A stretch of DNA of 35,440 nt from an uncultured bacterium (GCA_903862375.1 CAIOXR010000078.1:1-35440), one strand, 5' to 3'; positions 15,466 through 27,526 are shown, counted from the first letter of the stretch. Program-made: numbers and translations. Notes: generated by a model from the sequence alone, not told the origin.

Positions 15466-15717
15466 ATGGAAACTATAGAAGAAAGATTAAATAAAATAGA
15501 AGAAAGGAATAAAAGAGTTGAAATTGATAAAGCTTGGGAGACTAGTTTTGTCAGGATTCTTTCTATTAGTATTATCACTTATATTATAACTATCGTCCTA
15601 ATGTATAGTATTGGTATAGCTAAGCCATACTTAAACGCCTTCTTGCCTGTTTTTGGTTTTATACTTTCAACTCAATCAATTCCTGTTATAAAAAAGTATT
15701 GGATTAAGAATAAATAA
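15466..15717 (+). CDS. Small membrane protein (N-terminal coiled-coil segment plus 2 TM helices), function unknown
   Basis: METIEERLNKIEERNKRVEIDKAWETS is followed by two hydrophobic helices. It sits 3 nt after the argS stop and ends 3 nt before the next gene. Confidence 0.6.
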   Translation: METIEERLNKIEERNKRVEIDKAWETSFVRILSISIITYIITIVLMYSIGIAKPYLNAFLPVFGFILSTQSIPVIKKYWIKNK

Positions 15718-15720
15718 AAT

Positions 15721-17460
15721 ATGGAAAATAAAACTCCAAAATTCGATACAATTTTAGATAAAATGTTGGAATGTTTAGTACCTCATTATCGTGTTTGTAA
15801 ATGGAGTGGTTTACATCAATATTGTGAAGGTGAATTTAATATAACAAAAGAAGATATTGAATTTCTCAAAATACTTCGAGCTCCAGCTCCAAATTATTGT
15901 CCTACTTGTAGAAGGATGAATCGTCATGCTTTCGTAAATAATATCAATTTATATAAGAGAGTAAATAGTGCTCCAGGGAAGAATAATAATACAATATCTT
16001 TTGTCCCCCCAGTTTCTAAATTTATTGTTTACGATTTAGAAAGTTATAAAAATAATTTTGATCCATATCTTTACGGTACTTTTTATGATGAATCAAAAAG
16101 TTTTATTGATCAATTTTATGATTTAAGATTGAAAGTTCCACAACCTGCTATTATTCGAGATCCTTCAAATATAAATAGCGAATATTCTATAAATGGAAGA
16201 GATTTGAAGAATGGATACTATGTTAGCGGTGGGTGGAGGTCTGAAAATGTCTGGTACTCAAATTTAGTGACAGACTCTCGTAATGTTATGGATATTTACG
16301 CCTCACATTTTATAGAAAATTCATATGAATTAACTTCTTGTGAGAAATGTTATAACTGTCAGTATTCTTATTTTTCTGATAATTGTATTAATTCAATGTT
16401 TATGTATGATTGTAACAATTGCCAAGATTGTTTTGGGTGTGTAAATTTAAGAAATAAAAGTAATTGCATTTTTAATAATCAATATTCAAAAGAAGAATAT
16501 AAAGAGAGTATTCTTAAAATTAATTTAAATAGTAAAAAAGTATTATCTGACTTAAATGATAAATTTTGGAAATTTGTAAAAACACAACCAGTTCGAGCAG
16601 AAAGGCATGAAAGTGTGAATAATGTCTCAGGAGTAAATATTTCAAATTCAAGAAATTGCCATGATGTTATTGATTGTGTTAATACAGAACATGTACTACA
16701 TTGTGACCAAATAGTAGGGCATAGAGATTCTATGGATGCCTCAGTGACAGGCGGTTCAGAAAGATTATACAATACCATTGCAGTAGGCTCTAAATCATCA
16801 AATGTAAAATTTTCTTTTGCTTCGAAATTTATAACAGAATCAGAATTTGTAATTAATTGTAGGAATGTGAATAATTGTTTTGCTTGTATTGGATTAGAGA
16901 ATAAGAATTATTGTATTTTTAATAGACAATATGAAAAAGATGAATATTATAAAGAATTAGATAAAATTAAAACAAATTTATTAATAAATGGAGAATATGG
17001 AGATTTTTTACCTTTTAAGTTTAGCACATTTGCTTATAATGGTTCATTGGCAGATATATCATTTCCAATAGACAAAGAAGGTATTGAAAAAGTTAGTGCA
17101 ATATGGCAGCCAGAAACTGAAACAAACGCAATAGGAATGGAGATGATAGAACCAGAAAATATACCAGATACAATAGAAGAAGTTTCTGATGATATTTTAC
17201 AGAAGGCTCTTATCTGCGAAAAAACAAGAAGACCATTTAGAATAATTGAATCTGAACTTGAATTTTACAAAATTCATAATATTCCCTTACCAAGAGTTCA
17301 CCAAATAAAAAGAATTAAAGATAGATATAAATATGTAGGAAATCTTAAAGCTTATAGTAATAATTGTGAATTATGTAGTAAAAAAATTAATACTTTTTAT
17401 ATAAAAGAAGATGGATGGAAATTATATTGTGATGAATGTTACAAGAGAGAAGTTTTATAA
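15721..17460 (+). CDS. Cysteine-rich protein of unknown function. It is the more degenerate paralog (26 Cys) of the 17473-19143 product.
   Basis: It aligns end to end with the downstream gene. It contains two copies of the cap motif C-x2-C-[FI]-[GA]-C-[VI]-x-L-x-x-K-x-x-C-I-F-N-x-x-Y-x-K-[ED]-E-Y, and zinc-ribbon-like termini that have partly lost their CxxC pairs. Confidence 0.8.
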   Translation: MENKTPKFDTILDKMLECLVPHYRVCKWSGLHQYCEGEFNITKEDIEFLKILRAPAPNYCPTCRRMNRHAFVNNINLYKRVNSAPGKNNNTISFVPPVSKFIVYDLESYKNNFDPYLYGTFYDESKSFIDQFYDLRLKVPQPAIIRDPSNINSEYSINGRDLKNGYYVSGGWRSENVWYSNLVTDSRNVMDIYASHFIENSYELTSCEKCYNCQYSYFSDNCINSMFMYDCNNCQDCFGCVNLRNKSNCIFNNQYSKEEYKESILKINLNSKKVLSDLNDKFWKFVKTQPVRAERHESVNNVSGVNISNSRNCHDVIDCVNTEHVLHCDQIVGHRDSMDASVTGGSERLYNTIAVGSKSSNVKFSFASKFITESEFVINCRNVNNCFACIGLENKNYCIFNRQYEKDEYYKELDKIKTNLLINGEYGDFLPFKFSTFAYNGSLADISFPIDKEGIEKVSAIWQPETETNAIGMEMIEPENIPDTIEEVSDDILQKALICEKTRRPFRIIESELEFYKIHNIPLPRVHQIKRIKDRYKYVGNLKAYSNNCELCSKKINTFYIKEDGWKLYCDECYKREVL

Positions 17461-17472
17461 AATAAATAAATT

Positions 17473-19143
17473 ATGAATTCAGAAACAAAAAATTGTAAGA
17501 ATTGTAAAAAAGATTTCACAATAGAATCTGATGATTTTTCTTTTTATGAAAAGATTGGTGTTTGTGTTCCAAACATGTGTCCTTGTTGTAGAGCTCAGTC
17601 ACGATTAAGTTTTCGTAATGAAAGAACATTTTATAAAAGACCATGTGATAAATGTAAGAAAAGTGTTGTATCTATGTATTCACCCAATAAATCATTTACT
17701 GTTTATTGCTACGATTGCTGGTTTAATGACAATTGGGGAGGGGAGGATTTTGGATTAGATTATGATTATAAAATTCCTTTTTTTGAACAATTTGATAAAT
17801 TATGGAAAAAAGTGCCTAAAGTTTCACTTATTTATATGCGTAGTCCAGGAAGTGAATATACAAATATATCTGCCGATAACAAAGATTGCTACTATATTAT
17901 AGAATCATCAAACAATGAAAATTCAATACATTCATACTGGATTCAAGAGTGTAGAGATGTGATAGACACTTCTTTTGCATCCAAGTGTGAGCTTACATAT
18001 GAATCTGATGATTGTTACAATTCATACAAACTTTTATATAGTAAAGGTTGTCATGATTGTACTACGAGTTATTTTCTTGCTGATTGCAAAGGGTGCACAG
18101 ATTGTATTGGGTGTATTAATTTAAGAAATAAAAGTAATTATATTTTCAATGAATCATATTCAAAAAAAGATTATGAAGAGATTAAAAAAGACTTAAATCT
18201 TAATACTTATACTGGCATAAAAAATTTCAGAGAAAAATATGAAGAATTTTTAATAAAAAAACCTCGTAAATTTGCTGAAATAATACAAATTGTAAATTCA
18301 ACTGGTTCATATATGAAAAATGTTAAGAATTGCAAGTCGTGTTTCCATTGTTATGATGCAGAAGACAATAAGTATGGTGTTCATATTTGGAGAAATGCTA
18401 AAGACACTATGGATTGTGATACAGCAGGAAGGAATGTATCTTTAATATATAATTCGATAAATGCTGGAATTGATAATTCAAATCTGACCTGTGTTGCTTT
18501 GTGTTGGACTTGTTCATTTGTAGAGTATTCTATGTATTGTTTTAATTCCAATAATTGTTTTGGTTGTGTTGGATTAAGAAAAAAGAATTATTGTATTTTA
18601 AATAAACAATATGGAAAAGAAGAATATGAAAGAATCGTAAATAATATAAAGAATGAATTGAAAGAAAAAGGAGAGTATGGTAGTTTCTTTTCTAATAATT
18701 TATCATGTTTTGGATATAATGAGACTCCAGCCAATGAACAATTTCCACTTTCTAAAAAAGAAGCAATAGAGAGAAGTTTTAAATGGGAAGATACGGAAAG
18801 GGGAGTATATAATAAAGAAACGAAGAAGATAGAGGATATACCTGACAGAATAGAAGATATAGATTTTGAAGTTAGTAATGAGATATATGTCTGTGCGGAT
18901 TGTAATAAAAATTATAAGATTATAGTAGATGAATTCTCTTTTTATAAGAAGTTAGATATTCCTTTACCTCGCTTGTGTCCTGAATGTAGACATAATAGAA
19001 GGATGAAATCGCGTGGTCCGAACAAGCTTTGGCATAGGTCTTGTATGAAAGAAGGTTGTTCTAATGAATTTGAAACTTCGTATTCATCAGATCGACCAGA
19101 GATAGTTTACTGCGAACAATGTTATCAGAATGAAGTAGTATAA
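17473..19143 (+). CDS. Cysteine-rich protein of unknown function (40 Cys) with zinc-ribbon modules at both termini and an internally duplicated Cys-ladder core
   Basis: The N-terminal module is CKNCKKDFTIESDDFSFYEKIGVCVPNMCPCCR...RPCDKCKK...VYCYDCW. The C-terminal module is CADCNKNYKIIVDEFSFYKKLDIPLPRLCPECR...RSCMKEGC...VYCEQCY. The central repeats end in CKGCTDCIGCINLRNKSNYIFNESYSKKDY and CFNSNNCFGCVGLRKKNYCILNKQYGKEEY. Confidence 0.85.
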   Translation: MNSETKNCKNCKKDFTIESDDFSFYEKIGVCVPNMCPCCRAQSRLSFRNERTFYKRPCDKCKKSVVSMYSPNKSFTVYCYDCWFNDNWGGEDFGLDYDYKIPFFEQFDKLWKKVPKVSLIYMRSPGSEYTNISADNKDCYYIIESSNNENSIHSYWIQECRDVIDTSFASKCELTYESDDCYNSYKLLYSKGCHDCTTSYFLADCKGCTDCIGCINLRNKSNYIFNESYSKKDYEEIKKDLNLNTYTGIKNFREKYEEFLIKKPRKFAEIIQIVNSTGSYMKNVKNCKSCFHCYDAEDNKYGVHIWRNAKDTMDCDTAGRNVSLIYNSINAGIDNSNLTCVALCWTCSFVEYSMYCFNSNNCFGCVGLRKKNYCILNKQYGKEEYERIVNNIKNELKEKGEYGSFFSNNLSCFGYNETPANEQFPLSKKEAIERSFKWEDTERGVYNKETKKIEDIPDRIEDIDFEVSNEIYVCADCNKNYKIIVDEFSFYKKLDIPLPRLCPECRHNRRMKSRGPNKLWHRSCMKEGCSNEFETSYSSDRPEIVYCEQCYQNEVV

Positions 19144-19405: not shown

Positions 19406-19433
19406 TTGCAAATTTTAATTTTAGTGTTATCAT
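19406..19433 (+). promoter_or_regulatory. Candidate sigma70-type promoter of the ileS leader
   Basis: TTGCAA (19406-19411), a 16-nt spacer and an extended -10 TGtTATCAT (19425-19433). It lies just upstream of the T-box leader. Confidence 0.45.
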
Positions 19434-19440
19434 CTAGGTA

Positions 19441-19653
19441 TACGAAGAAGGAGTCATCACTCCTGAGTATTGGGAAGAAATGTTTCGTAAATCCGCCTTC
19501 GCAGGAAGGCTACGGCGAGACAAAGTAGAACCCTTTAATGAGAAGTCCCGTGCAATTCAGCGGGTAAAAAATGAGGTGGTACCACGTGTTTCATCGGAAG
19601 CTCGTCCTTATATAGCAATTATTATAATTGTTGTATGTGGACGAGTTTTTTTT
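19441..19653 (+). promoter_or_regulatory. T-box riboswitch leader (putative Ile specifier) controlling ileS by transcription attenuation
   Basis: The T-box core is AAAAAUGAGGUGGUACCACG (19567-19586). An antiterminator can form from GAGG (19573-19576) paired to CCUU (19606-19609), a 7-nt bulge UGGUACC, and ACG/CGU. Its 3' strand is shared with the terminator 5' arm. A Stem-III-like hairpin is CCCG..CGGG (19547-19564). AUC-A sits at 19456-19459 in the apical loop of hairpin 19450-19463. Confidence 0.75.
19601..19653 (+). terminator. Intrinsic terminator of the T-box leader
   Basis: CTCGTCC (19601-19607) pairs with GGACGAG (19639-19645). The stem extends inward with A-U and G-U pairs and is followed by T8 (19646-19653). 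Confidence 0.8.
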
Positions 19654-19811: not shown

Positions 19812-22800
19812 ATGGAAGAAAAAAATCAAAAGTCAAATAGTGCATTAAGAGAAGAAGCTGTTTTAAAATTCTGGAAAGAGAATGATATTTTCGAAAAGAG
19901 TTTAAAGAAAGACGCACCAAAAGGTAAATATGTTTTTTATGATGGTCCTCCTTTTGCTACGGGTTTGCCTCATTATGGTCATATTCTTGGAAGTGCAGTA
20001 AAAGATGTTATCGGTAGGTATAAAACAATGAGTGGATATAATGTTCCTCGTCGTTGGGGTTGGGATTGTCATGGTTTACCTATTGAAAATATTGTTGAAA
20101 AAGATTTAGGTATTTCAGGAAAGAAAGCCATCGAAGCATTAGGGATAGATAAGTTTACAGAACACGCACGTAGTAAGGTTCTTACTTATGTCTCCGAATG
20201 GAAGAAGACTGTTGATCGTATGGGACGCTGGGTAGATTTTGATAACTCCTATAAGACTATGGATAATACTTTTATAGAAAGTGTCTGGTGGGCATTAGGT
20301 GAAATGAATAAAAAAGGTTTACTTTACGAAGGAGTAAGAGTATTAGCATATTGCCCTCGATGTGAGACACCAATAGCAAACTCAGAAATAGCTATGGATA
20401 ATAGTTATAAAGATATCACTGATATTTCTGTATATGTTAAATTTAAAATTTTAGATAAAAAATATAAAGATACTTATCTTCTGGCTTGGACTACGACCCC
20501 TTGGACACTTCCTGGTAATACTGCCATAGCTATAAATAAAGATTTAGTTTATATATTAGTGAAAAATATTACAGATAAAGGTGAAGAAGTGTATATAGTA
20601 TCAAAAGATTTATTTGAAAGTTTAAGAAGTAAATTTAATAATCCTGAAATTATTAAAGAAGTAAAAGGTGAAGATTTAATCGGTCTTTCTTATGAACCAA
20701 TTTTTTCTTATTATGAAAATGTTGAAATACCAAATAAAGAAAATATTTGGAAAGTTTGGCATGCTGATTTTGTGACAATGGAAAAAGGTACTGGTATTGC
20801 GCATGAGGCTCCTGCCTTTGGTGAAGATGACATGAATCTGGCAAAGATGAATAATATTCCTTTTATTCGTCATGTTGAACCAAATGGTGATTTCTCAAAA
20901 GAAGTTACTGATTTCCCAAATGTGAAAGCAAAACCCAAAGAAGATCATCAATCTACTGATATATTAATTATTAAATATTTGGCTGGTAGTGGACATCTTT
21001 TTGCCAAAGAAAAAATAATACACTCATATCCTCATTGTTACCGTTGTGAGACACCACTTTTGTATTATGCTCTTCCATCTTGGTTTATAAATATTCAAAA
21101 AGTAAAAAATGATTTAATTAAGAAGGGTGAAGATATGAATTGGATACCAGGACATTTAAAAGATGGGCGCTTTAAGCAAACTATGGAAAGTGCACCAGAT
21201 TGGACTATATCTCGTAATCGTTATTGGGCAAGTCCATTACCATTTTGGAAATCAAAAAGTGGCAAACTAATAGTTATAAGTTCACTAGAGGATCTAAAAT
21301 CAAAAATAAAGAAATCTGGAAATAAATATTTTGTAATGCGTCATGGAGAAGCAGAGTGTAATGTCAGTAAAGTTATTTTAGATGATGATCAAGCGAATAA
21401 TTGTAAACTTACAGAAAAAGGTAGGGAGCAAGTTAAAGATAGTTCTAAGAATTTTAAAGAAAAGATAGATATCATAATTGCTTCTCCTTTGGAAAGAACT
21501 AGAGAAACTACAAAAATTATTTGTGAAAATATTGGTTTTCCTTTAGATAAAGTTATATACAGTGACCTTGAAAAAGAATGGGATGTTAGCTCAAATTTTC
21601 AAGGTAAATCCAGAGAAGATTTTGAAGATTATTATTGTAGACAATATTTGAATCATCCATTTGAAGCATTACCAAATGGAGAGAGTTATTCTCAGCTTGT
21701 ATATCGTGTTGGTAAAATGATTTATGATATAGATAGTAAATATAATGGGAAAAATATTCTTTTAGTTGGGCATGCAGGTGAAACCAGTGCTCTTAATCAT
21801 GTGGTTCAAGGATTTTCTTTTGAGACATTAGCGAAAGATTTGCATTTTCCTTCATATTTAAAGAATGCTGAGATAAGAGAACTTGATTTTATTCCTTTAC
21901 CTCACAATCATAATTATGAACTTGATTTTCATCGTCCATATATTGACTCCATTATACTTGTAGATGATGAAGGGGAAGAATACAAAAGAATTTCTGAAGT
22001 TGTAGATTGTTGGTTTGAATCTGGGTCTATGCCTTTTGCTCAAAATCATTACCCATTTGAGTGTCCTAATTGGAAAGAAGAAAATTTTCCATCAGGTTTT
22101 GTTGCTGAGTATATAGCTCAAACTCGAACATGGTTTTACTATACACATACTATTTCTACTATTCTTTTTGGAGAAGCACCATTTGAGAATGTTGTGACGA
22201 CTGGAACTGTATTAGCAGAAGATGGGGCTAAGATGTCGAAATCTAAGAATAATTATCCTGATCCATGGTTATTATTTAATAAATATGGAGTTGATGCTCT
22301 TCGTTTTTATTTAGTATCTTCTACTCTTATGAAAGGAGAGGATGTTAATTTCTCTGAAAAGTTAGTACAAGAGGTCGCTAGTAAGATAATTAATCGTTTT
22401 GATAATGTAGTTTCTTTTTATGAATTATATAAAGGAGATTTTGATCCAGAAAGTGAACATGAAATATCAAAAAATGTTTTAGATATTTGGATCATATCAA
22501 GATTAAAACAATTTGTTTTAGAAGTAGAAGATGGTATGAAATCCTATGATTTAGCACAAGCGACAAAACCATTTGAATTGTTTATTGAAGATTTATCTAC
22601 ATGGTATTTGCGTAGATCTCGCGATAGATTAAAAGAAAATGATGCTGAATCTAAACAGACGCTATATTTTGTGTTAAAGGTAACAGTTCAGTTATTTGCT
22701 CCATTTATGCCATTTATTGCTGATGATATTTGGCAGAAAATCCGATTTGAATCGGATCCTGTAAGTGTTCATCTTACAGACTTTTTTGATGGAATTAAAA

Positions 22801-23291
22801 TAGATAGTATAGATACTAAAATAATAAATGAAATGCAAGAAGTTCGTGAGGTTGTTACTTTGGGTCTTCAAGCGAGACAAAAAGCAGGAATACCAGTAAG
22901 ACAGCCTTTGGGTGAGCTAGTAGTTACTAATTACAAGCTACCTAAAGAATACGAAGAGATAGTCAAAGATGAATTAAATATAAAAGAGATTAAGATATTA
23001 GATGGTGAAGAAAAGAAAGTAGAGATAGATACGGATATCACACCCGAGCTTCGTACAGAGGGTCAGTATAGAGAGCTTGTAAGAGCTATACAAGATATGA
23101 GGAAAAAAGCAGGACTTAACCCAAGTGATATTGTAAATATCATAATATCTACCTCTAAAGAAGGAGAAGGTCTAATAAATAAATTTAAGAATGAACTACT
23201 AAAAGCAGTAGGGTCAAATGAGATAAAAATAAAAGAGAATAATGGAACTGAGGTCAAGATTGATGATTTAATATTTGTCATAAGTATATAA
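19812..23291 (+). CDS. ileS: Isoleucine--tRNA ligase (type 2-like) carrying an inserted histidine-phosphatase domain
   Basis: It has HIGH as PHYGHILG, the CP1 editing motif TTTPWTLPGNTA, RNRYWASPLPFW, and KMSKS as AKMSKSKNN. At 1159 aa it includes an insert of about 195 aa, listed separately. Confidence 0.95.
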   Translation: MEEKNQKSNSALREEAVLKFWKENDIFEKSLKKDAPKGKYVFYDGPPFATGLPHYGHILGSAVKDVIGRYKTMSGYNVPRRWGWDCHGLPIENIVEKDLGISGKKAIEALGIDKFTEHARSKVLTYVSEWKKTVDRMGRWVDFDNSYKTMDNTFIESVWWALGEMNKKGLLYEGVRVLAYCPRCETPIANSEIAMDNSYKDITDISVYVKFKILDKKYKDTYLLAWTTTPWTLPGNTAIAINKDLVYILVKNITDKGEEVYIVSKDLFESLRSKFNNPEIIKEVKGEDLIGLSYEPIFSYYENVEIPNKENIWKVWHADFVTMEKGTGIAHEAPAFGEDDMNLAKMNNIPFIRHVEPNGDFSKEVTDFPNVKAKPKEDHQSTDILIIKYLAGSGHLFAKEKIIHSYPHCYRCETPLLYYALPSWFINIQKVKNDLIKKGEDMNWIPGHLKDGRFKQTMESAPDWTISRNRYWASPLPFWKSKSGKLIVISSLEDLKSKIKKSGNKYFVMRHGEAECNVSKVILDDDQANNCKLTEKGREQVKDSSKNFKEKIDIIIASPLERTRETTKIICENIGFPLDKVIYSDLEKEWDVSSNFQGKSREDFEDYYCRQYLNHPFEALPNGESYSQLVYRVGKMIYDIDSKYNGKNILLVGHAGETSALNHVVQGFSFETLAKDLHFPSYLKNAEIRELDFIPLPHNHNYELDFHRPYIDSIILVDDEGEEYKRISEVVDCWFESGSMPFAQNHYPFECPNWKEENFPSGFVAEYIAQTRTWFYYTHTISTILFGEAPFENVVTTGTVLAEDGAKMSKSKNNYPDPWLLFNKYGVDALRFYLVSSTLMKGEDVNFSEKLVQEVASKIINRFDNVVSFYELYKGDFDPESEHEISKNVLDIWIISRLKQFVLEVEDGMKSYDLAQATKPFELFIEDLSTWYLRRSRDRLKENDAESKQTLYFVLKVTVQLFAPFMPFIADDIWQKIRFESDPVSVHLTDFFDGIKIDSIDTKIINEMQEVREVVTLGLQARQKAGIPVRQPLGELVVTNYKLPKEYEEIVKDELNIKEIKILDGEEKKVEIDTDITPELRTEGQYRELVRAIQDMRKKAGLNPSDIVNIIISTSKEGEGLINKFKNELLKAVGSNEIKIKENNGTEVKIDDLIFVISI
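21324..21917 (+). other. Histidine phosphatase (phosphoglycerate-mutase-like) domain embedded in-frame within IleRS (about aa 505-702)
   Basis: KYFVMRHGEAECN carries the RHG catalytic motif. IIASPLERTRETT carries the second Arg region. ILLVGHAGETSAL carries the distal catalytic His. The domain is flanked by IleRS core segments: ...PFWKSKSGKLIVISSLEDLK on the left and ELDFHRPYID...VVDCWFESGSMP on the right. Confidence 0.8.
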
Positions 23292-25660: not shown

Positions 25661-27526
25661 ATGCCTGAGAATGAGAATAAAATTGAAGATATAAAACGTC
25701 GTCTTTATGAACCTAAAGATACAGTAACTCATCGCACAAAAGAAAATATAATTCATAATATTGATCATAAGGTAGAACAAAATTGGAAACAAGAAGACGA
25801 AAATACTTCTAATAAAATCAGAAAACCAAAAACATCAATTTTTAAAAAGTTTTTTATTTTTTCAATAGTGTTCTTTTTTTTGGCTATTGGGGTAGCATTT
25901 TATCTATACTCAAATAATGGTACTTCTGTTTCGAATGAATATATTGATATAACAGTTATAGGTAATGCATTTACAAAGGGAGGAGAAGAATTACCTTTAC
26001 AGATCGAAGTTACAAATAGGAATAAAGCAAATCTTGAACTTGTAAATTTGATAGTTTCTTTTCCAAATGGGGCAAATAACAATTCTATAGATATCACAAG
26101 ACTGCCTAGAATTACTATTGGAACTATTAAACCAGGTGAAACAATCACAAAAAACATAAAAGTAGTTTTATATGGTGATGAAAGATCTGATCGTAACATA
26201 AAGATTGATCTTGAGTATCATCCTGAAAGTTCAAATGCAATTTTTACAAAAAGTAAAGATTATCCAGTTAATATAAGTTCTGCTCCTCTTTCTTTGTTCG
26301 TAGAAGCACCAGATACTGTAACCTCTGATCAGCCAGTAATTGTAACTGTAAAAGCTGTTCTTAATACTTCACTACAAAATAACGGTACGGTAATGCAAGT
26401 AAGTTATCCAAATAACTTTATTTATGAAGGTGCTGAGCCAGCACCTACCTTAGGAAATTCTATGTGGAGTTTAGATTCTCTAAGTTTGACTAATCCAGTT
26501 TCTGTCGTTATTAAAGGTAGAATAGTAGGATTAGATAATGACCAACAGGTTTTTCATGTTTATGCTGGAACTATAAAAGAAAATGATAAATCCAATATGG
26601 ATATTGTATATAATTCTTTGTTACACACAATTACTATTACAAAACCATTTCTTGAAGCAAATATTATTGCGAAAGACACTTCTTCGTCTGGTGATATAGT
26701 TGAAGTTAAAATATTATGGGTAAATAATTTACCAACTAAAATAACTGATGGGGAAATTTTTGTTAATTTAGGAGGGAATGTTTATGATCGTACATCGGTC
26801 AAACCTTCAAAGGGATTTTTTGATTCATTTAATAATCGTATAATTTGGGATAGGAACTATATAGATGAATTATCAAATATTGAACCTGGGCAAAGTGGAG
26901 AGGTTGATTTTAGTGTTAGCTCAAAAGAATTATCAGGTATTCAAGATTTAATTAAAGATCCAGAATTAACGTTTGATGTAAGTATAAAAGGACGTCAACC
27001 TTCTTTAGGGTCTACATATACTGAAGTAAATAATTTTTCAAAAAAAGTTGTAAAAATATTATCTAATTTTCAAATTGCTGCTTCTGCTTCATATAAGGCG
27101 GGTCCTCTTCCTCCAAAAGCTGAGAAAAAAACGGATTATGTTGTTACATGGAGTTTGCTTAATGGAACCAATACGATATCAGAGGCAGTGGCAAGGGCAT
27201 CTCTTCCTATTTATGTAAATTGGGTTTCTTCTAACTCACAAAGAGAAAATATAACTTATAATGAATCTACTCGTGAAGTTGTTTGGAAAATAGGTACAGT
27301 TCGTGCAAATACTGGTGGAAATGTTGACAAAGAAGCTGTATTTACAATTTCACTTTCTCCTTCGCTTTCTCAAGTGGGAAGCACTCCACAGTTAATGAAA
27401 GAAATATTTTTATCTGGAACTGATACATTTACAAATACACAAATTAATTTTAAAAATGGATCAATTAATACATTATTATCAGGAGATATAAATTTTAAAT
27501 CAGGTGATGAACGTGTAGTAGAGTAA
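25661..27526 (+). CDS. Membrane-anchored extracytoplasmic protein (beta-rich, probably tandem Ig-like domains), function unknown
   Basis: A charged N-terminus is followed by one TM helix (FFIFSIVFFFLAIGVAFYLY) and then about 540 aa rich in T/S/N/V with no catalytic motif I recognise. Confidence 0.7.
   Translation: MPENENKIEDIKRRLYEPKDTVTHRTKENIIHNIDHKVEQNWKQEDENTSNKIRKPKTSIFKKFFIFSIVFFFLAIGVAFYLYSNNGTSVSNEYIDITVIGNAFTKGGEELPLQIEVTNRNKANLELVNLIVSFPNGANNNSIDITRLPRITIGTIKPGETITKNIKVVLYGDERSDRNIKIDLEYHPESSNAIFTKSKDYPVNISSAPLSLFVEAPDTVTSDQPVIVTVKAVLNTSLQNNGTVMQVSYPNNFIYEGAEPAPTLGNSMWSLDSLSLTNPVSVVIKGRIVGLDNDQQVFHVYAGTIKENDKSNMDIVYNSLLHTITITKPFLEANIIAKDTSSSGDIVEVKILWVNNLPTKITDGEIFVNLGGNVYDRTSVKPSKGFFDSFNNRIIWDRNYIDELSNIEPGQSGEVDFSVSSKELSGIQDLIKDPELTFDVSIKGRQPSLGSTYTEVNNFSKKVVKILSNFQIAASASYKAGPLPPKAEKKTDYVVTWSLLNGTNTISEAVARASLPIYVNWVSSNSQRENITYNESTREVVWKIGTVRANTGGNVDKEAVFTISLSPSLSQVGSTPQLMKEIFLSGTDTFTNTQINFKNGSINTLLSGDINFKSGDERVVE

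Follow-up and report, generated by a model that had tools for sequence, protein, structure and literature searches.

What do two adjacent, cysteine-rich proteins do at the end of a run of housekeeping genes, and to which family do they belong? The question is raised by the window (the whole stretch of 35,440 nucleotides that was analysed), in which a preliminary description had marked two neighbouring plus-strand reading frames, here called A and B (Table 1). The coordinates, the lengths of 579 and 556 aa and the cysteine counts of 26 and 40 given there were all exact, and the two proteins can be aligned over their full length (E=3e-90, with 34% identity in 555 aa). The sequence of A is identical to entry P0121. 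No catalytic motif was found in the conserved columns, which hold aromatic residues, Pro, Gly, Asn and Cys, in line with the first reading, and neither a signal peptide nor a TM segment was found in A and B.

The gene order in the window is glyA...tmk-NUDIX-dut-argS-83 aa ORF-A-B, with spacers of 3, 3 and 12 nt, as expected for the proposed polycistron with its spacers of 3-12 nt; both genes are chromosomal and lie among housekeeping genes. The T-box that had been placed before ileS is present as a T-box-like leader, carrying the GGTGGTACCACG motif, a hairpin and a T-run, but its score (32 bits, E=2.5e-5) is under the Rfam gathering score. The idea that the pair is always tandem and beside aaRS genes had to be abandoned: two loci (L006 and L007) have the order argS-B-ileS without A, and elsewhere in the family one to nine copies are found next to neighbours other than argS/ileS. 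The adjacency to argS/ileS is local synteny only.

Table 1. Features of the two genes and their products in the window
Feature	Position	Strand	Basis and remarks
Paralog A, A-type subfamily	15721..17460	+	ORF, 579 aa, 26 Cys; putative zinc sites 2 and 3 missing
Paralog B, B-type subfamily	17473..19143	+	ORF, 556 aa, 40 Cys; 4/4 putative terminal zinc sites, 2/2 caps
A N-terminal module	15784..16056	+	Site 1 present, site 2 gone; A/B alignment, Cys positions, homologs
A cap block 1 (res 231-260, CNNCQDCFGCVNLRNKSNCIFNNQYSKEEY)	16411..16500	+	Sequence; Cys positions; homologs
A cap block 2 (res 380-409, CRNVNNCFACIGLENKNYCIFNRQYEKDEY)	16858..16947	+	Sequence; Cys positions; homologs
A C-terminal module	17203..17454	+	Site 3 partial, site 4 whole; A/B alignment, Cys positions, homologs
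B N-terminal module (res 4-86)	17482..17730	+	Fingers a and b; hhalign vs C-terminal module, E=1.3e-25
B core half 1 ladder (res 127-216)	17851..18120	+	12-residue rows; ends in cap coil C205-x2-C208-x2-C211-x2-C214
B cap block 1 (res 205-234, CKGCTDCIGCINLRNKSNYIFNESYSKKDY)	18085..18174	+	Sequence; L217, R218, N226, Y234 conserved
B core half 2 ladder (res 279-367)	18307..18573	+	hhalign to half 1; 12-residue rows
B cap block 2 (res 356-385, CFNSNNCFGCVGLRKKNYCILNKQYGKEEY)	18538..18627	+	Sequence and column conservation
B C-terminal module (res 470-555)	18880..19137	+	Fingers a and b; hhalign vs N-terminal module

The family to which A and B belong comprises 5,690 clusters at 50% identity, with more than 5,273 homologs of B. 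All named lineages among its members are Parcubacteria (CPR), to which it is apparently confined. There are one to nine copies per locus, on the same strand and tightly spaced, and the neighbourhoods include aaRS, DnaK/DnaJ and SecDF genes. The copies in an array are old paralogs, not recent duplicates, and some arrays contain split copies (L027, L041, L045 and L052). Between orthologs B is 80-82% identical, compared with 70-72% for ArgRS, 48-73% for IleRS and 46-53% for GlyRS, and judged by these identities it is slower-evolving than the flanking aaRS genes. With dN/dS estimated at about 0.09-0.12 (dS being saturated), the alignments show strong purifying selection on the family, which is non-neutral and widely conserved, so that none of the refuting conditions named in the first reading arose.

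The same module had been reported at both ends of B, and indeed the two segments are homologous in the profile-profile comparison (hhalign; 99.7% probability, E=1.3e-25), whereas control comparisons of module and core were negative (E about 0.25). Each module is finger-bearing as described, but it holds two different tetra-Cys fingers. Finger a (C8/C11/C36/C39, zf_Tbcl-like, and C474/C477/C502/C505 in B) follows the pattern CxxC-x3-F-x-I-x3-[DE]-x2-FY-x-K...P-x2-C-x2-CR. Finger b is an exact CxxC-x17-CxxC in the N-terminal module (C58-x2-C61-x17-C79-x2-C82), and its C-terminal copy opens with a Cx4C pair (C524-x4-C529-x17-C547-x2-C550). The proposed identity of the modules as zf-trcl-like was borne out for the family: 18/53 homologs match Pfam zf_Tbcl (PF13451; best 4.7e-6) and 14/53 match zf_Tbcl_2 (PF23477; best 7.2e-7), and Foldseek matched the terminal modules to viral 'zinc-ribbon domain proteins'. 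B itself reaches 16.6 bits (E=0.008, at 472-512) against the zf_Tbcl gathering cut-off of 24, and A has no Pfam match to it. This indicates probable homology of the terminal modules to zf_Tbcl and zf_Tbcl_2 at the family level, with the window proteins under the Pfam cut-off. Among the NCBIfam models none matched A or B at E<=1, including that of the CxxC-x17-CxxC domain, which we take to be TIGR04272. The zf_Tbcl and CxxC-x17-CxxC proteins have the finger a pattern and the finger b spacing in common with B; in B, unlike known zf_Tbcl proteins, the fingers are paired into a module of ~85 aa that stands at both ends of a protein of ~560 aa. The zf_Tbcl, zf_Tbcl_2 and CxxC-x17-CxxC families are themselves without established function. 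A LIM domain (PF00412) at B 504-554 was rejected, as its 16.4 bits fall short of the cut-off (22.9) and the ligands are all Cys, spaced otherwise than in the C2HC+C4-type double finger of LIM; LIM proteins in the PDB matched at E=0.004-0.3 only. Stand-alone CxxC-x17-CxxC proteins bind zinc according to ICP-MS (PMC12704099).

Among 170 members, conservation reaches 99-100% at sites 1 and 4 and 59-83% at site 2, where C61/C79/C82 covary with phi 0.98-1.0; the two finger a sites are 86-99% conserved and covary as units. Across the family, ligand sets are gained or lost all-or-none (phi 0.98-1.0 and 0.70-0.90). Metal binding by the terminal tetra-Cys sites is well supported by this covariation (phi 0.7-1.0), and the metal is assumed to be zinc, rather than iron.

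In A, site 1 (C26-x8-C35...C60-x2-C63) and site 4 (C549, C552, C570, C573) are kept, whereas site 2 is replaced by N82, P85, D105 and S108, and site 3 is down to C499 (with T502, H527 and K530). The preliminary description was therefore right that A has lost ligand pairs, with PRVHQIKR opposite PRLCPECR of B, but its term degenerate does not fit. Sites 2 and 3 are at 0% Cys in 117/117 A-type homologs, all of which retain sites 1 and 4 (100%), while conservation is 95-100% in cap 1 and 63-100% in cap 2. A and ArgRS evolve at the same rate. Since the same two sites are absent in all 117, the rest is kept and the rate is ArgRS-like, A is not a decaying copy.

Between the modules lies a core for which two runs of short repeats with one Cys each had been proposed. 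The duplication is clear, as B 131-244 and B 279-395 are homologous (hhalign; 99.8% probability, E=1e-27), but the repeat is a different one: its unit spans 12 residues, columns 1, 4, 7 and 10 are occupied by Cys or Ser, and lags 3 and 12 stand out as peaks in the autocorrelation. The four cap blocks quoted at the outset were found verbatim. Cap 1 has four Cys at 3-residue spacing in one coil, 82-96% conserved, and cap 2 has three well-conserved Cys only (in B, C356 80%, C365 95% and C374 83%, beside N377 and Y380 at 100%). The AF2 model of B has a pLDDT of 81 and a pTM of 0.83, its strands lie 12 residues apart, and the ladder regions in both AF2 models have a pLDDT of 55-70. A solenoid-like Cys ladder, as had been suggested, fits both the 12-residue period and the predicted strand spacing in this low-pLDDT region. 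The CxxCxxCxxC spacing had also been read as a sign of metal or cluster binding, which is plausible for the cap; the ladder Cys swap freely with Ser and covary weakly, and most of them are therefore probably packing residues, not ligands. Taken together, the profile comparisons and the repeat rows show an architecture of two-finger module, ladder and cap, ladder and cap, linker, and two-finger module.

No match covering the core was found in Pfam, NCBIfam, PADLOC, PDB sequences or Foldseek, and for the ladder Foldseek gave no match at E<0.4, with a model pLDDT there of only 55-70. A left-handed beta-helix of hexapeptide repeats was rejected: GlmU, LpxD and gamma-carbonic anhydrase appeared only at E>=0.4 and TM<0.12, there was no Hexapep Pfam match, and the period is 12, not 18. 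The nearest likeness is to the beetle antifreeze beta-helix TmAFP (PDB 1EZG), whose coil TCTxSxNCxxAx has 12 residues with a small residue at every third position, of which C2, S5, C8 and A11 face inward (PMC8038014). The family ladder has the same period and Cys/Ser at columns 1, 4, 7 and 10, but similarity is lacking in sequence (Pfam, PDB) and in Foldseek, where the low-pLDDT ladder weakens the fold test. Moreover, TmAFP is secreted and has disulfide-bonded coils and an ice-binding TxT face, whereas the family appears cytoplasmic and has no TxT face, and its ladder is duplicated, has a four-Cys coil as its cap and lies between putative zinc modules. The likeness is best taken as an analogy of repeat geometry, not as membership.

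A lead to function comes from the gene neighbourhoods. TrwB/VirD4-like ATPases directly adjoin a family gene in 27/50 cases, against 165/961 for other genes (OR 5.7, p=1e-8 in a Fisher test whose independence is overstated by loci from related genomes), and an ATPase is present in 19/33 loci with at least three family copies versus 4/37 single-copy loci. Ten non-family proteins in the loci match the terminal module, and all of them are such ATPases; the segment that B shares with the long TrwB-like ATPases is finger b. TrwB is the only PDB match of the neighbouring ATPases, most of which lack TM helices, and their genes are often preceded by a gene for a DUF8128-type TM protein that is related to them but lacks a Walker A motif. 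These data show that, at the level of the family, the genes are linked in the genome to TM-less TrwB/VirD4-like ATPases with the same CxxC-x17-CxxC finger. No TrwB/VirD4-like ATPase was found within the 35 kb of this window, and the link is therefore one of guilt by association at the family level.

A published survey counted 5,713 VirD4-like T4CPs in CPR genomes, 148 of them near virB4, and its authors could not rule out exaptation; in the CPR the ATPases lie mostly far from virB4. There is a known subfamily of T4CPs that lack a TMD and have a small membrane protein as their partner, and those of the TraJ/TraI type of pIP501 resemble the neighbouring ATPases, not A or B (PMC7434980). The neighbouring ATPases differ from the pIP501 type in having no relaxase or conjugation genes nearby, and the long ones carry the CxxC-x17-CxxC finger, which is not described for T4CPs. 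In Bartonella, VirD4 recognises the BID domain shared by the Beps (PMC6519360). Like the Beps, the family is a repertoire of paralogs with a common terminal module, encoded beside VirD4/TrwB-family ATPases; unlike the Beps, its paralogs are of ancient origin and strongly conserved instead of diversifying rapidly, and the terminal finger is present in the ATPase itself. The C-terminus also differs from that of T4SS substrates in having no disordered basic tail.

The best explanation, which we hold tentatively and at somewhat less than even confidence, is that A and B are non-enzymatic, zinc-stabilised solenoid proteins that act as clients or adaptors of orphan coupling ATPases, a function that we infer. 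They would be two old paralogs from a family that is specific to the Parcubacteria and whose members are soluble proteins of the cytoplasm without enzymatic activity. The terminal sites would bind zinc and serve as docking modules, one at each end of a rigid and acidic double solenoid, and different paralogs (A with two sites, B with four) would work together as a set. As a repertoire, this set would provide clients or adaptors for the ATPases, which are often encoded with a DUF8128-type membrane partner; the ATPase would recognise the finger modules, and the proteins would be handed to a membrane machine or bring cargo there.

Tightly metal-bound proteins are poor translocation substrates, which counts against a role as clients. 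So does the conservation of B above that of the aaRS genes, unusual for translocated effectors, as well as its C-terminus, a conserved structured finger (...Y546-C547-E548-x-C550-Y551-x-x-E554; pLDDT 81-86) with Y551 and E554 instead of the disordered basic tail typical of T4SS substrates. A bolder version, in which a hitherto unrecognised system of TM-less TrwB/VirD4-like ATPases and DUF8128 proteins exports or handles ancient zinc-capped solenoids throughout the Parcubacteria and the core is a new fold, a cytoplasmic 12-residue beta-helix with a thiol-lined lumen and a metal-binding four-Cys coil that closes it, seems rather unlikely at present.

Alternatively, the proteins might form a self-assembling intracellular scaffold with a structural or cytoskeletal role, joined end to end by their zinc modules as polymers or hetero-oligomers, the ATPase synteny being coincidental. 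The pseudo-symmetric module-core-core-module layout would suit such a role, as would the co-directional, tightly spaced arrays of old paralogs, which resemble those of complex subunits, and the housekeeping-like conservation and neighbourhoods (aaRS, DnaK/DnaJ, SecDF). LIM domains are protein-interaction modules, and the terminal fingers are weakly LIM-like. A scaffold leaves unexplained, however, why the finger recurs in TrwB-like ATPases alone and why ATPases are enriched beside the arrays, and with one to nine copies no fixed stoichiometry is apparent; we consider it unlikely. To the same degree we doubt that the two basic zinc modules bind DNA or RNA, one at each end of the protein, and that the family acts with FtsK/TrwB-type motors when DNA is taken up, processed or segregated. 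CPR cells are nucleotide-auxotrophic, which makes such a role relevant. The modules are net basic (+2.4 and +4.3), with Arg/Lys conserved after each finger, and in conjugation the TrwB-type ATPases serve as motors that depend on DNA (PMC7434980). Nevertheless, the ladders are acidic, as is the bulk of the protein, and no recognised nucleic-acid-binding domain was matched in Pfam or NCBIfam. One source labels a homolog 'Zn ribbon nucleic-acid-binding protein', but this label is automatic and reflects no tested function. In the window, A and B stand last in an operon with many genes of dNTP metabolism (tmk, dut, NUDIX), a context that is local synteny only.

It is improbable that the Cys-lined coils and the caps house metal clusters, Fe-S or polynuclear, with a part in electron transfer, sensing or metal storage. 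The regular, conserved Cys of cap 1, alternative covarying CxxC pairs on adjacent coils (187/190/199/202) and the 22-47 Cys per family protein would fit such clusters, but the ready exchange of ladder Cys for Ser, the mere three well-conserved Cys of cap 2 and the lack of recurring redox partner genes nearby do not. A ferredoxin-type 4Fe-4S site was rejected, as the cap reads CxxCxxCxxC and not CxxCxxCxxxCP, no CP follows, and there is no Fer4 Pfam match. Finally, that these genes belong to mobile elements, phages or defence, or are selfish genes in decay, without a conserved cellular role, is largely refuted and highly improbable: the multi-copy arrays with split copies and the weak PADLOC mad8/HerA matches, the only ones of the neighbouring ATPases, stand against the absence of PADLOC matches for A and B and of family relatives in 2.9 million viral contigs, the chromosomal housekeeping surroundings, the strong purifying selection and the age of the paralogs.

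The Parcubacteria are ultrasmall and among the most abundant uncultured bacteria, and their lineage-specific genes are mostly unexplained. Here a family of thousands of clusters, with up to nine copies per locus, is still nameless, lacks a domain model and has a core without structural relatives. The genomic link to the ATPases, together with the finger that they have in common with the family, offers a concrete partner hypothesis for the 5,713 VirD4-like coupling proteins of the CPR. If the client system is true, the orphan CPR coupling proteins would gain their missing clients, and a thiol-lined 12-residue beta-helix with metal caps, should the core prove to be one, would represent a protein architecture not seen before.

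The two adjacent cysteine-rich genes A and B are located exactly where the preliminary description had placed them, both on the plus strand, and the paralogy over their full length that it had proposed is clear (34% identity, E=3e-90). Its cysteine counts (26 in A, 40 in B) were reproduced, and the four cap blocks and the contrast between PRVHQIKR in A and PRLCPECR in B that it had quoted occur verbatim in the sequence. Both internal duplications it had described were recovered in profile-profile comparisons. The terminal modules match each other (B 4-86 versus B 470-555, 99.7% probability, E=1.3e-25, 83 columns, using sub-alignments), as do the two halves of the core (B 131-244 versus B 279-395, 99.8% probability, E=1e-27, 114 columns); control comparisons of module with core were negative.

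The domain order is module-core-core-linker-module, and each terminal module consists of two different tetra-Cys fingers. Finger a carries a zf_Tbcl-like motif (in B, site 1, C8/C11...C36/C39, at the N-terminus and site 3, C474/C477...C502/C505, at the C-terminus), and finger b is a CxxC-x17-CxxC unit (site 2, C58/C61-x17-C79/C82; site 4, C524/C529-x17-C547/C550). When the core is written in rows of 12 residues, Cys or Ser occupies columns 1, 4, 7 and 10 and almost never any other, and the autocorrelation of combined Cys and Ser occupancy peaks at lags 3 and 12. The final coil of each ladder, the CxxCxxCxxC cap, has mostly Cys at the repeat positions (C205/C208/C211/C214 at 82-96%). Neither protein has a signal peptide or a hydrophobic segment compatible with a transmembrane (TM) helix (maximal 19-residue Kyte-Doolittle mean 1.18). 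The AlphaFold2 model of B is confident overall (pLDDT 81, pTM 0.83) and shows short strands 12 residues apart in the ladders, where confidence is only 56-70; a core-only model built from a deeper alignment (141 sequences) had a lower pLDDT (74 versus 81 for the full-length model) and was of no help. The core may be a beta-solenoid.

The core is without known relative. Pfam (E<=1) leaves it uncovered in A, in B and in all of 53 homologs, in which only zf_Tbcl (18/53), zf_Tbcl_2 (14/53) and, weakly, LIM (6/53) were matched; together with the motif in finger a, the zf_Tbcl matches among the homologs support, for the family as a whole, the proposed zf-trcl-like nature of the terminal modules. NCBIfam (E<=1) and PADLOC returned nothing for A and B, and searches of the PDB by single sequence and by profile gave weak LIM-like finger matches and nothing stronger. 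Foldseek found no match at E<0.001 for the full-length model in PDB and BFVD or for the core-only model in PDB; against PDB, neither model had a match even at E<0.4, the insignificant top matches being left-handed beta-helix proteins, and against BFVD the zinc-ribbon module alone matches. The confident full-length hit that the preliminary description had allowed for thus failed to appear, with no match on the core in Pfam, NCBIfam, PDB or Foldseek. The ladder does resemble the beetle antifreeze beta-helix, whose coil, TCTxSxNCxxAx, has C2, S5, C8 and A11 pointing inward (PMC8038014): in both, the register is 12 residues long and every third position, four in all, is taken by a small residue. 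However, homology is not detectable and the antifreeze protein is secreted and disulfide-bonded, so that the likeness is an analogy of geometry only. The literature searched holds no earlier description of the Cys-rich family, which fits no known family or system.

In an alignment of 170 distinct full-length members from 83 loci, the ligand cysteines are conserved at 99-100% in sites 1 and 4, at 86-99% in site 3 and at 59-83% in site 2. The ligands of site 2 come and go as a set (phi 0.98-1.00 for C61/C79/C82), and so do those of site 3 (phi 0.70-0.90 for C477/C502/C505), as genuine tetra-Cys metal sites would be expected to do. The ladder cysteines swap one by one with Ser and covary weakly (phi<=0.5), and an alternative Cys set, 187/190/199/202, anticorrelates with 193/196. 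From this pattern of conservation and covariation we conclude that the terminal sites very likely bind metal, that the caps probably do so as well, and that most ladder cysteines would be small packing residues rather than ligands. ICP-MS on two purified CxxC-x17-CxxC proteins from Methanosarcina mazei, both of them stand-alone, showed bound zinc (PMC12704099). In the A/B family, too, the metal would presumably be zinc.

Paralog A had been suggested to be a degenerate partner subunit, but it represents a stable subfamily with fewer sites and is not a decaying copy. All 117 A-type homologs lack sites 2 and 3 (0% Cys at the ligand positions) and retain sites 1 and 4 (100%), cap 1 (95-100%) and cap 2 (63-100%); the median Cys count is 25, versus 38 in the B-type. 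The identity of A to its ortholog in a close relative (L001) is 72%, equal to that of ArgRS.

The window is occupied by housekeeping genes (HlyD/ABC/MacB, dcd, folA, thyA, glyA, tmk, dut, argS, ileS, recO, glyS, metG, rpsF, ssb). The order argS-83 aa ORF-A-B-ileS was found again only in the loci of close relatives (L001, L021); in two further loci (L006, L007) B is present without A at the same place, and at other places the neighbours of B-type genes are DnaJ, ATPases or further members of the family. Tandem pairing and adjacency to aminoacyl-tRNA synthetase (aaRS) genes, about which the preliminary description had asked, are therefore not traits of the family; the aaRS neighbourhood is local synteny, and an aaRS-linked function was rejected on this ground.

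Several other features of the region were recorded (see table). The hydrophobic 83 aa ORF between argS and A, with 3-nt spacers on both sides, has no family match; L006 and L007 have a small ORF resembling it at the corresponding place. No Pfam model matches the 621 aa ORF that separates recO from glyS; its relatives in L001, L006 and L021 (66-68% identity) are found at the same position. A divergent T-box-like leader upstream of ileS contains a GGTGGTACCACG motif, followed by a CTCGTCC...GGACGAG hairpin with a T-run. The match to Rfam RF00230 spans the full model at 32 bits (gathering 93; E=2.5e-5) and was seen in E-value mode only; at the gathering threshold, Rfam found nothing in the window. 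The isoleucyl-tRNA synthetase has a histidine-phosphatase insert inside its catalytic domain, as does its L001 ortholog, which is an unusual aaRS architecture.

Features of the window and of two further loci (L002, L004)
Feature	Sequence	Position	Strand	Remark
A	window	15721-17460	+	ORF, 579 aa
B	window	17473-19143	+	ORF, 556 aa
Hydrophobic ORF	window	15466-15717	+	83 aa
T-box-like leader	window	19406-19653	+	upstream of ileS
Promoter-like site	window	19406-19433		TTGCAA-16-TG-TATCAT
RF00230 match	window	19436-19612
Isoleucyl-tRNA synthetase	window	19812-23291	+	His_Phos_1 insert (RHGE motif), residues 507-675, E=8e-24
ORF between recO and glyS	window	25661-27526	+	621 aa
SecD to soluble ATPase block	L004	1-6228		upstream of family array
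Long ATPase and LTD+PKD protein	L002	9727-13482

The pair is no isolated oddity. B recovers >5,273 database clusters at 90% identity and A 1,395, which carry no label or an automatic one ('hypothetical protein', 'zinc-ribbon domain containing protein'). With 5,690 representatives at 50% identity in an exhaustive profile search (2,242 at E<=1e-30; nearly all of the best 150 of the 5,690 are ~510-600 aa) and 571 confirmed relatives among GTDB species representatives, the homologs are not sporadic, as the preliminary description had considered possible. The named lineages all belong to the Parcubacteria group of Patescibacteria (Nomura-, Lipton-, Staskawicz-, Jorgensen-, Harrison- and Giovannonibacteria, Paceibacterota and RAAC4_OD1), to which the family is apparently restricted. 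Some bins bear the generic label 'uncultured Candidatus Saccharibacteria', of doubtful reliability, and those labelled Gammaproteobacteria, Ignavibacteria and Peribacteria (2-3 kb contigs) are likely mis-binned. No relatives were found in 2.9 million viral contigs.

An HMM search of the ORFs in all fetched loci gave 1-9 copies per locus, on the same strand, with at least three in many loci and nine within 17 kb in L059. Neighbouring copies differ from each other as much as family pairs drawn at random do (median identity 40% vs 41%), so that the arrays consist of old paralogs and not of recent duplicates; recent tandem duplication and arms-race diversification were rejected accordingly. In L027, L041, L045 and L052 some copies are split into 2-3 consecutive ORFs, either pseudogenes or assembly frameshifts. 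The arrays of old paralogs are under purifying selection. B is 80-82% identical to its syntenic relatives (dN 0.11-0.14) and evolves more slowly than ArgRS (70-72%), IleRS (48-73%) and GlyRS (46-53%). Its dN/dS of ~0.09-0.12 is rough, since dS is saturated (>1.2) in all available orthologs, and for this reason the argument rests chiefly on dN and on amino-acid identity in comparison with the genes nearby; neutral evolution, the other doubt raised beforehand, is excluded.

Among 1,011 clustered neighbouring ORFs, one cluster, of TrwB/VirD4-like ATPases, is conspicuous: it has 50 members, spread over 29 loci. Of these, 27/50 lie directly next to a family gene and run in its direction, versus 165/961 of the others (OR 5.7, p=1e-8; the loci are phylogenetically non-independent), and they occur in 19 of the 33 loci with at least three family copies versus 4 of the 37 single-copy loci. 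They match TrwB_AAD_bind, T4SS-DNA_transf, TraG-D_C and DUF87 in Pfam; in the PDB, sequence searches retrieved nothing but the coupling protein TrwB (E=2e-8, 2e-4). TM helices are missing in most. A related form of ~465 aa, which precomputed annotations assign to DUF8128, bears TM segments at its N-terminus and no Walker A motif, and often lies upstream of a 172 aa protein and a soluble ATPase of ~495 aa. When locus proteins were searched with the terminal-module HMM, all ten non-family matches were the long form of the ATPases, the common segment being finger b (e.g. ...CSNCGKSTMVPFEPKEGRPIYCKDC...). The family is thus linked to TM-less TrwB-like ATPases by both genomic position and domain sharing.

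Other recurring neighbours are DnaK, DnaJ, a PaaX-like protein, SecDF, a sigma-70-like protein, an LTD+PKD protein and an M17 aminopeptidase. A block conserved upstream of family arrays in several lineages (L004, L018, L042, L062, L033) reads SecD, SecF, sigma-70-like/HARE-HTH protein, DUF8128-type TM protein (TrwB-related, no Walker A), 172 aa protein, soluble TrwB-like ATPase. In L002, L024, L036 and L041 a long TrwB-like ATPase (700-870 aa, with the CxxC-x17-CxxC finger) is followed by an LTD+PKD protein of ~480 aa that looks like a surface protein. The dnaK-dnaJ genes are interleaved with family and ATPase genes in eight loci (L025, L045, L061, L071, L080, L081, L016, L026), in the order PaaX-like (minus strand), DnaK, ATPase, family, ATPase, DnaJ, family, 196 aa protein. 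Such an arrangement may reflect either a functional link or a gene order inherited from a common ancestor.

A 2025 survey reported 5,713 VirD4-like coupling proteins in 2,918 CPR genomes, 148 of them near virB4; its authors leave exaptation open and do not mention the Cys-rich family. We tentatively propose that the A/B family may be a client or adaptor set of such orphan coupling ATPases. Since no TrwB-like ATPase lies within 35 kb in the window, A and B are tied to this function solely through their family. Comparable elements are known: TMD-less coupling proteins acting together with a small membrane protein form a recognised subfamily, such as TraJ/TraI of pIP501 (PMC7434980), and in Bartonella a coupling protein recognises paralogous effector repertoires via a common domain (PMC6519360). 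Simple secreted effectors would, however, agree poorly with the very high conservation, the structured C-terminus without basic tail and the predicted tight metal binding, hence the wording client or adaptor. Since conservation falls on structural residues, and basic modules contrast with acidic ladders, we infer a non-enzymatic docking or scaffold role, in which different paralogs may act jointly. Beside the link to the ATPases, a scaffold working independently of them is rather unlikely, and we are equally doubtful of a factor that handles nucleic acids. A redox or cluster protein is improbable: the earlier suggestion that CxxCxxCxxC indicates metal or cluster binding seems plausible for metal, but the spacing is wrong for a ferredoxin-like cluster, and that motif was rejected. 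A selfish or defence element is scarcely credible, and the defence or mobile-element idea was set aside.

The preliminary description was largely accurate and its finding real. What is added is a system context at the level of the family, to which the client or adaptor function would belong. The pair A and B is one local occurrence, in two copies, of a family that is very large and uncharacterised.
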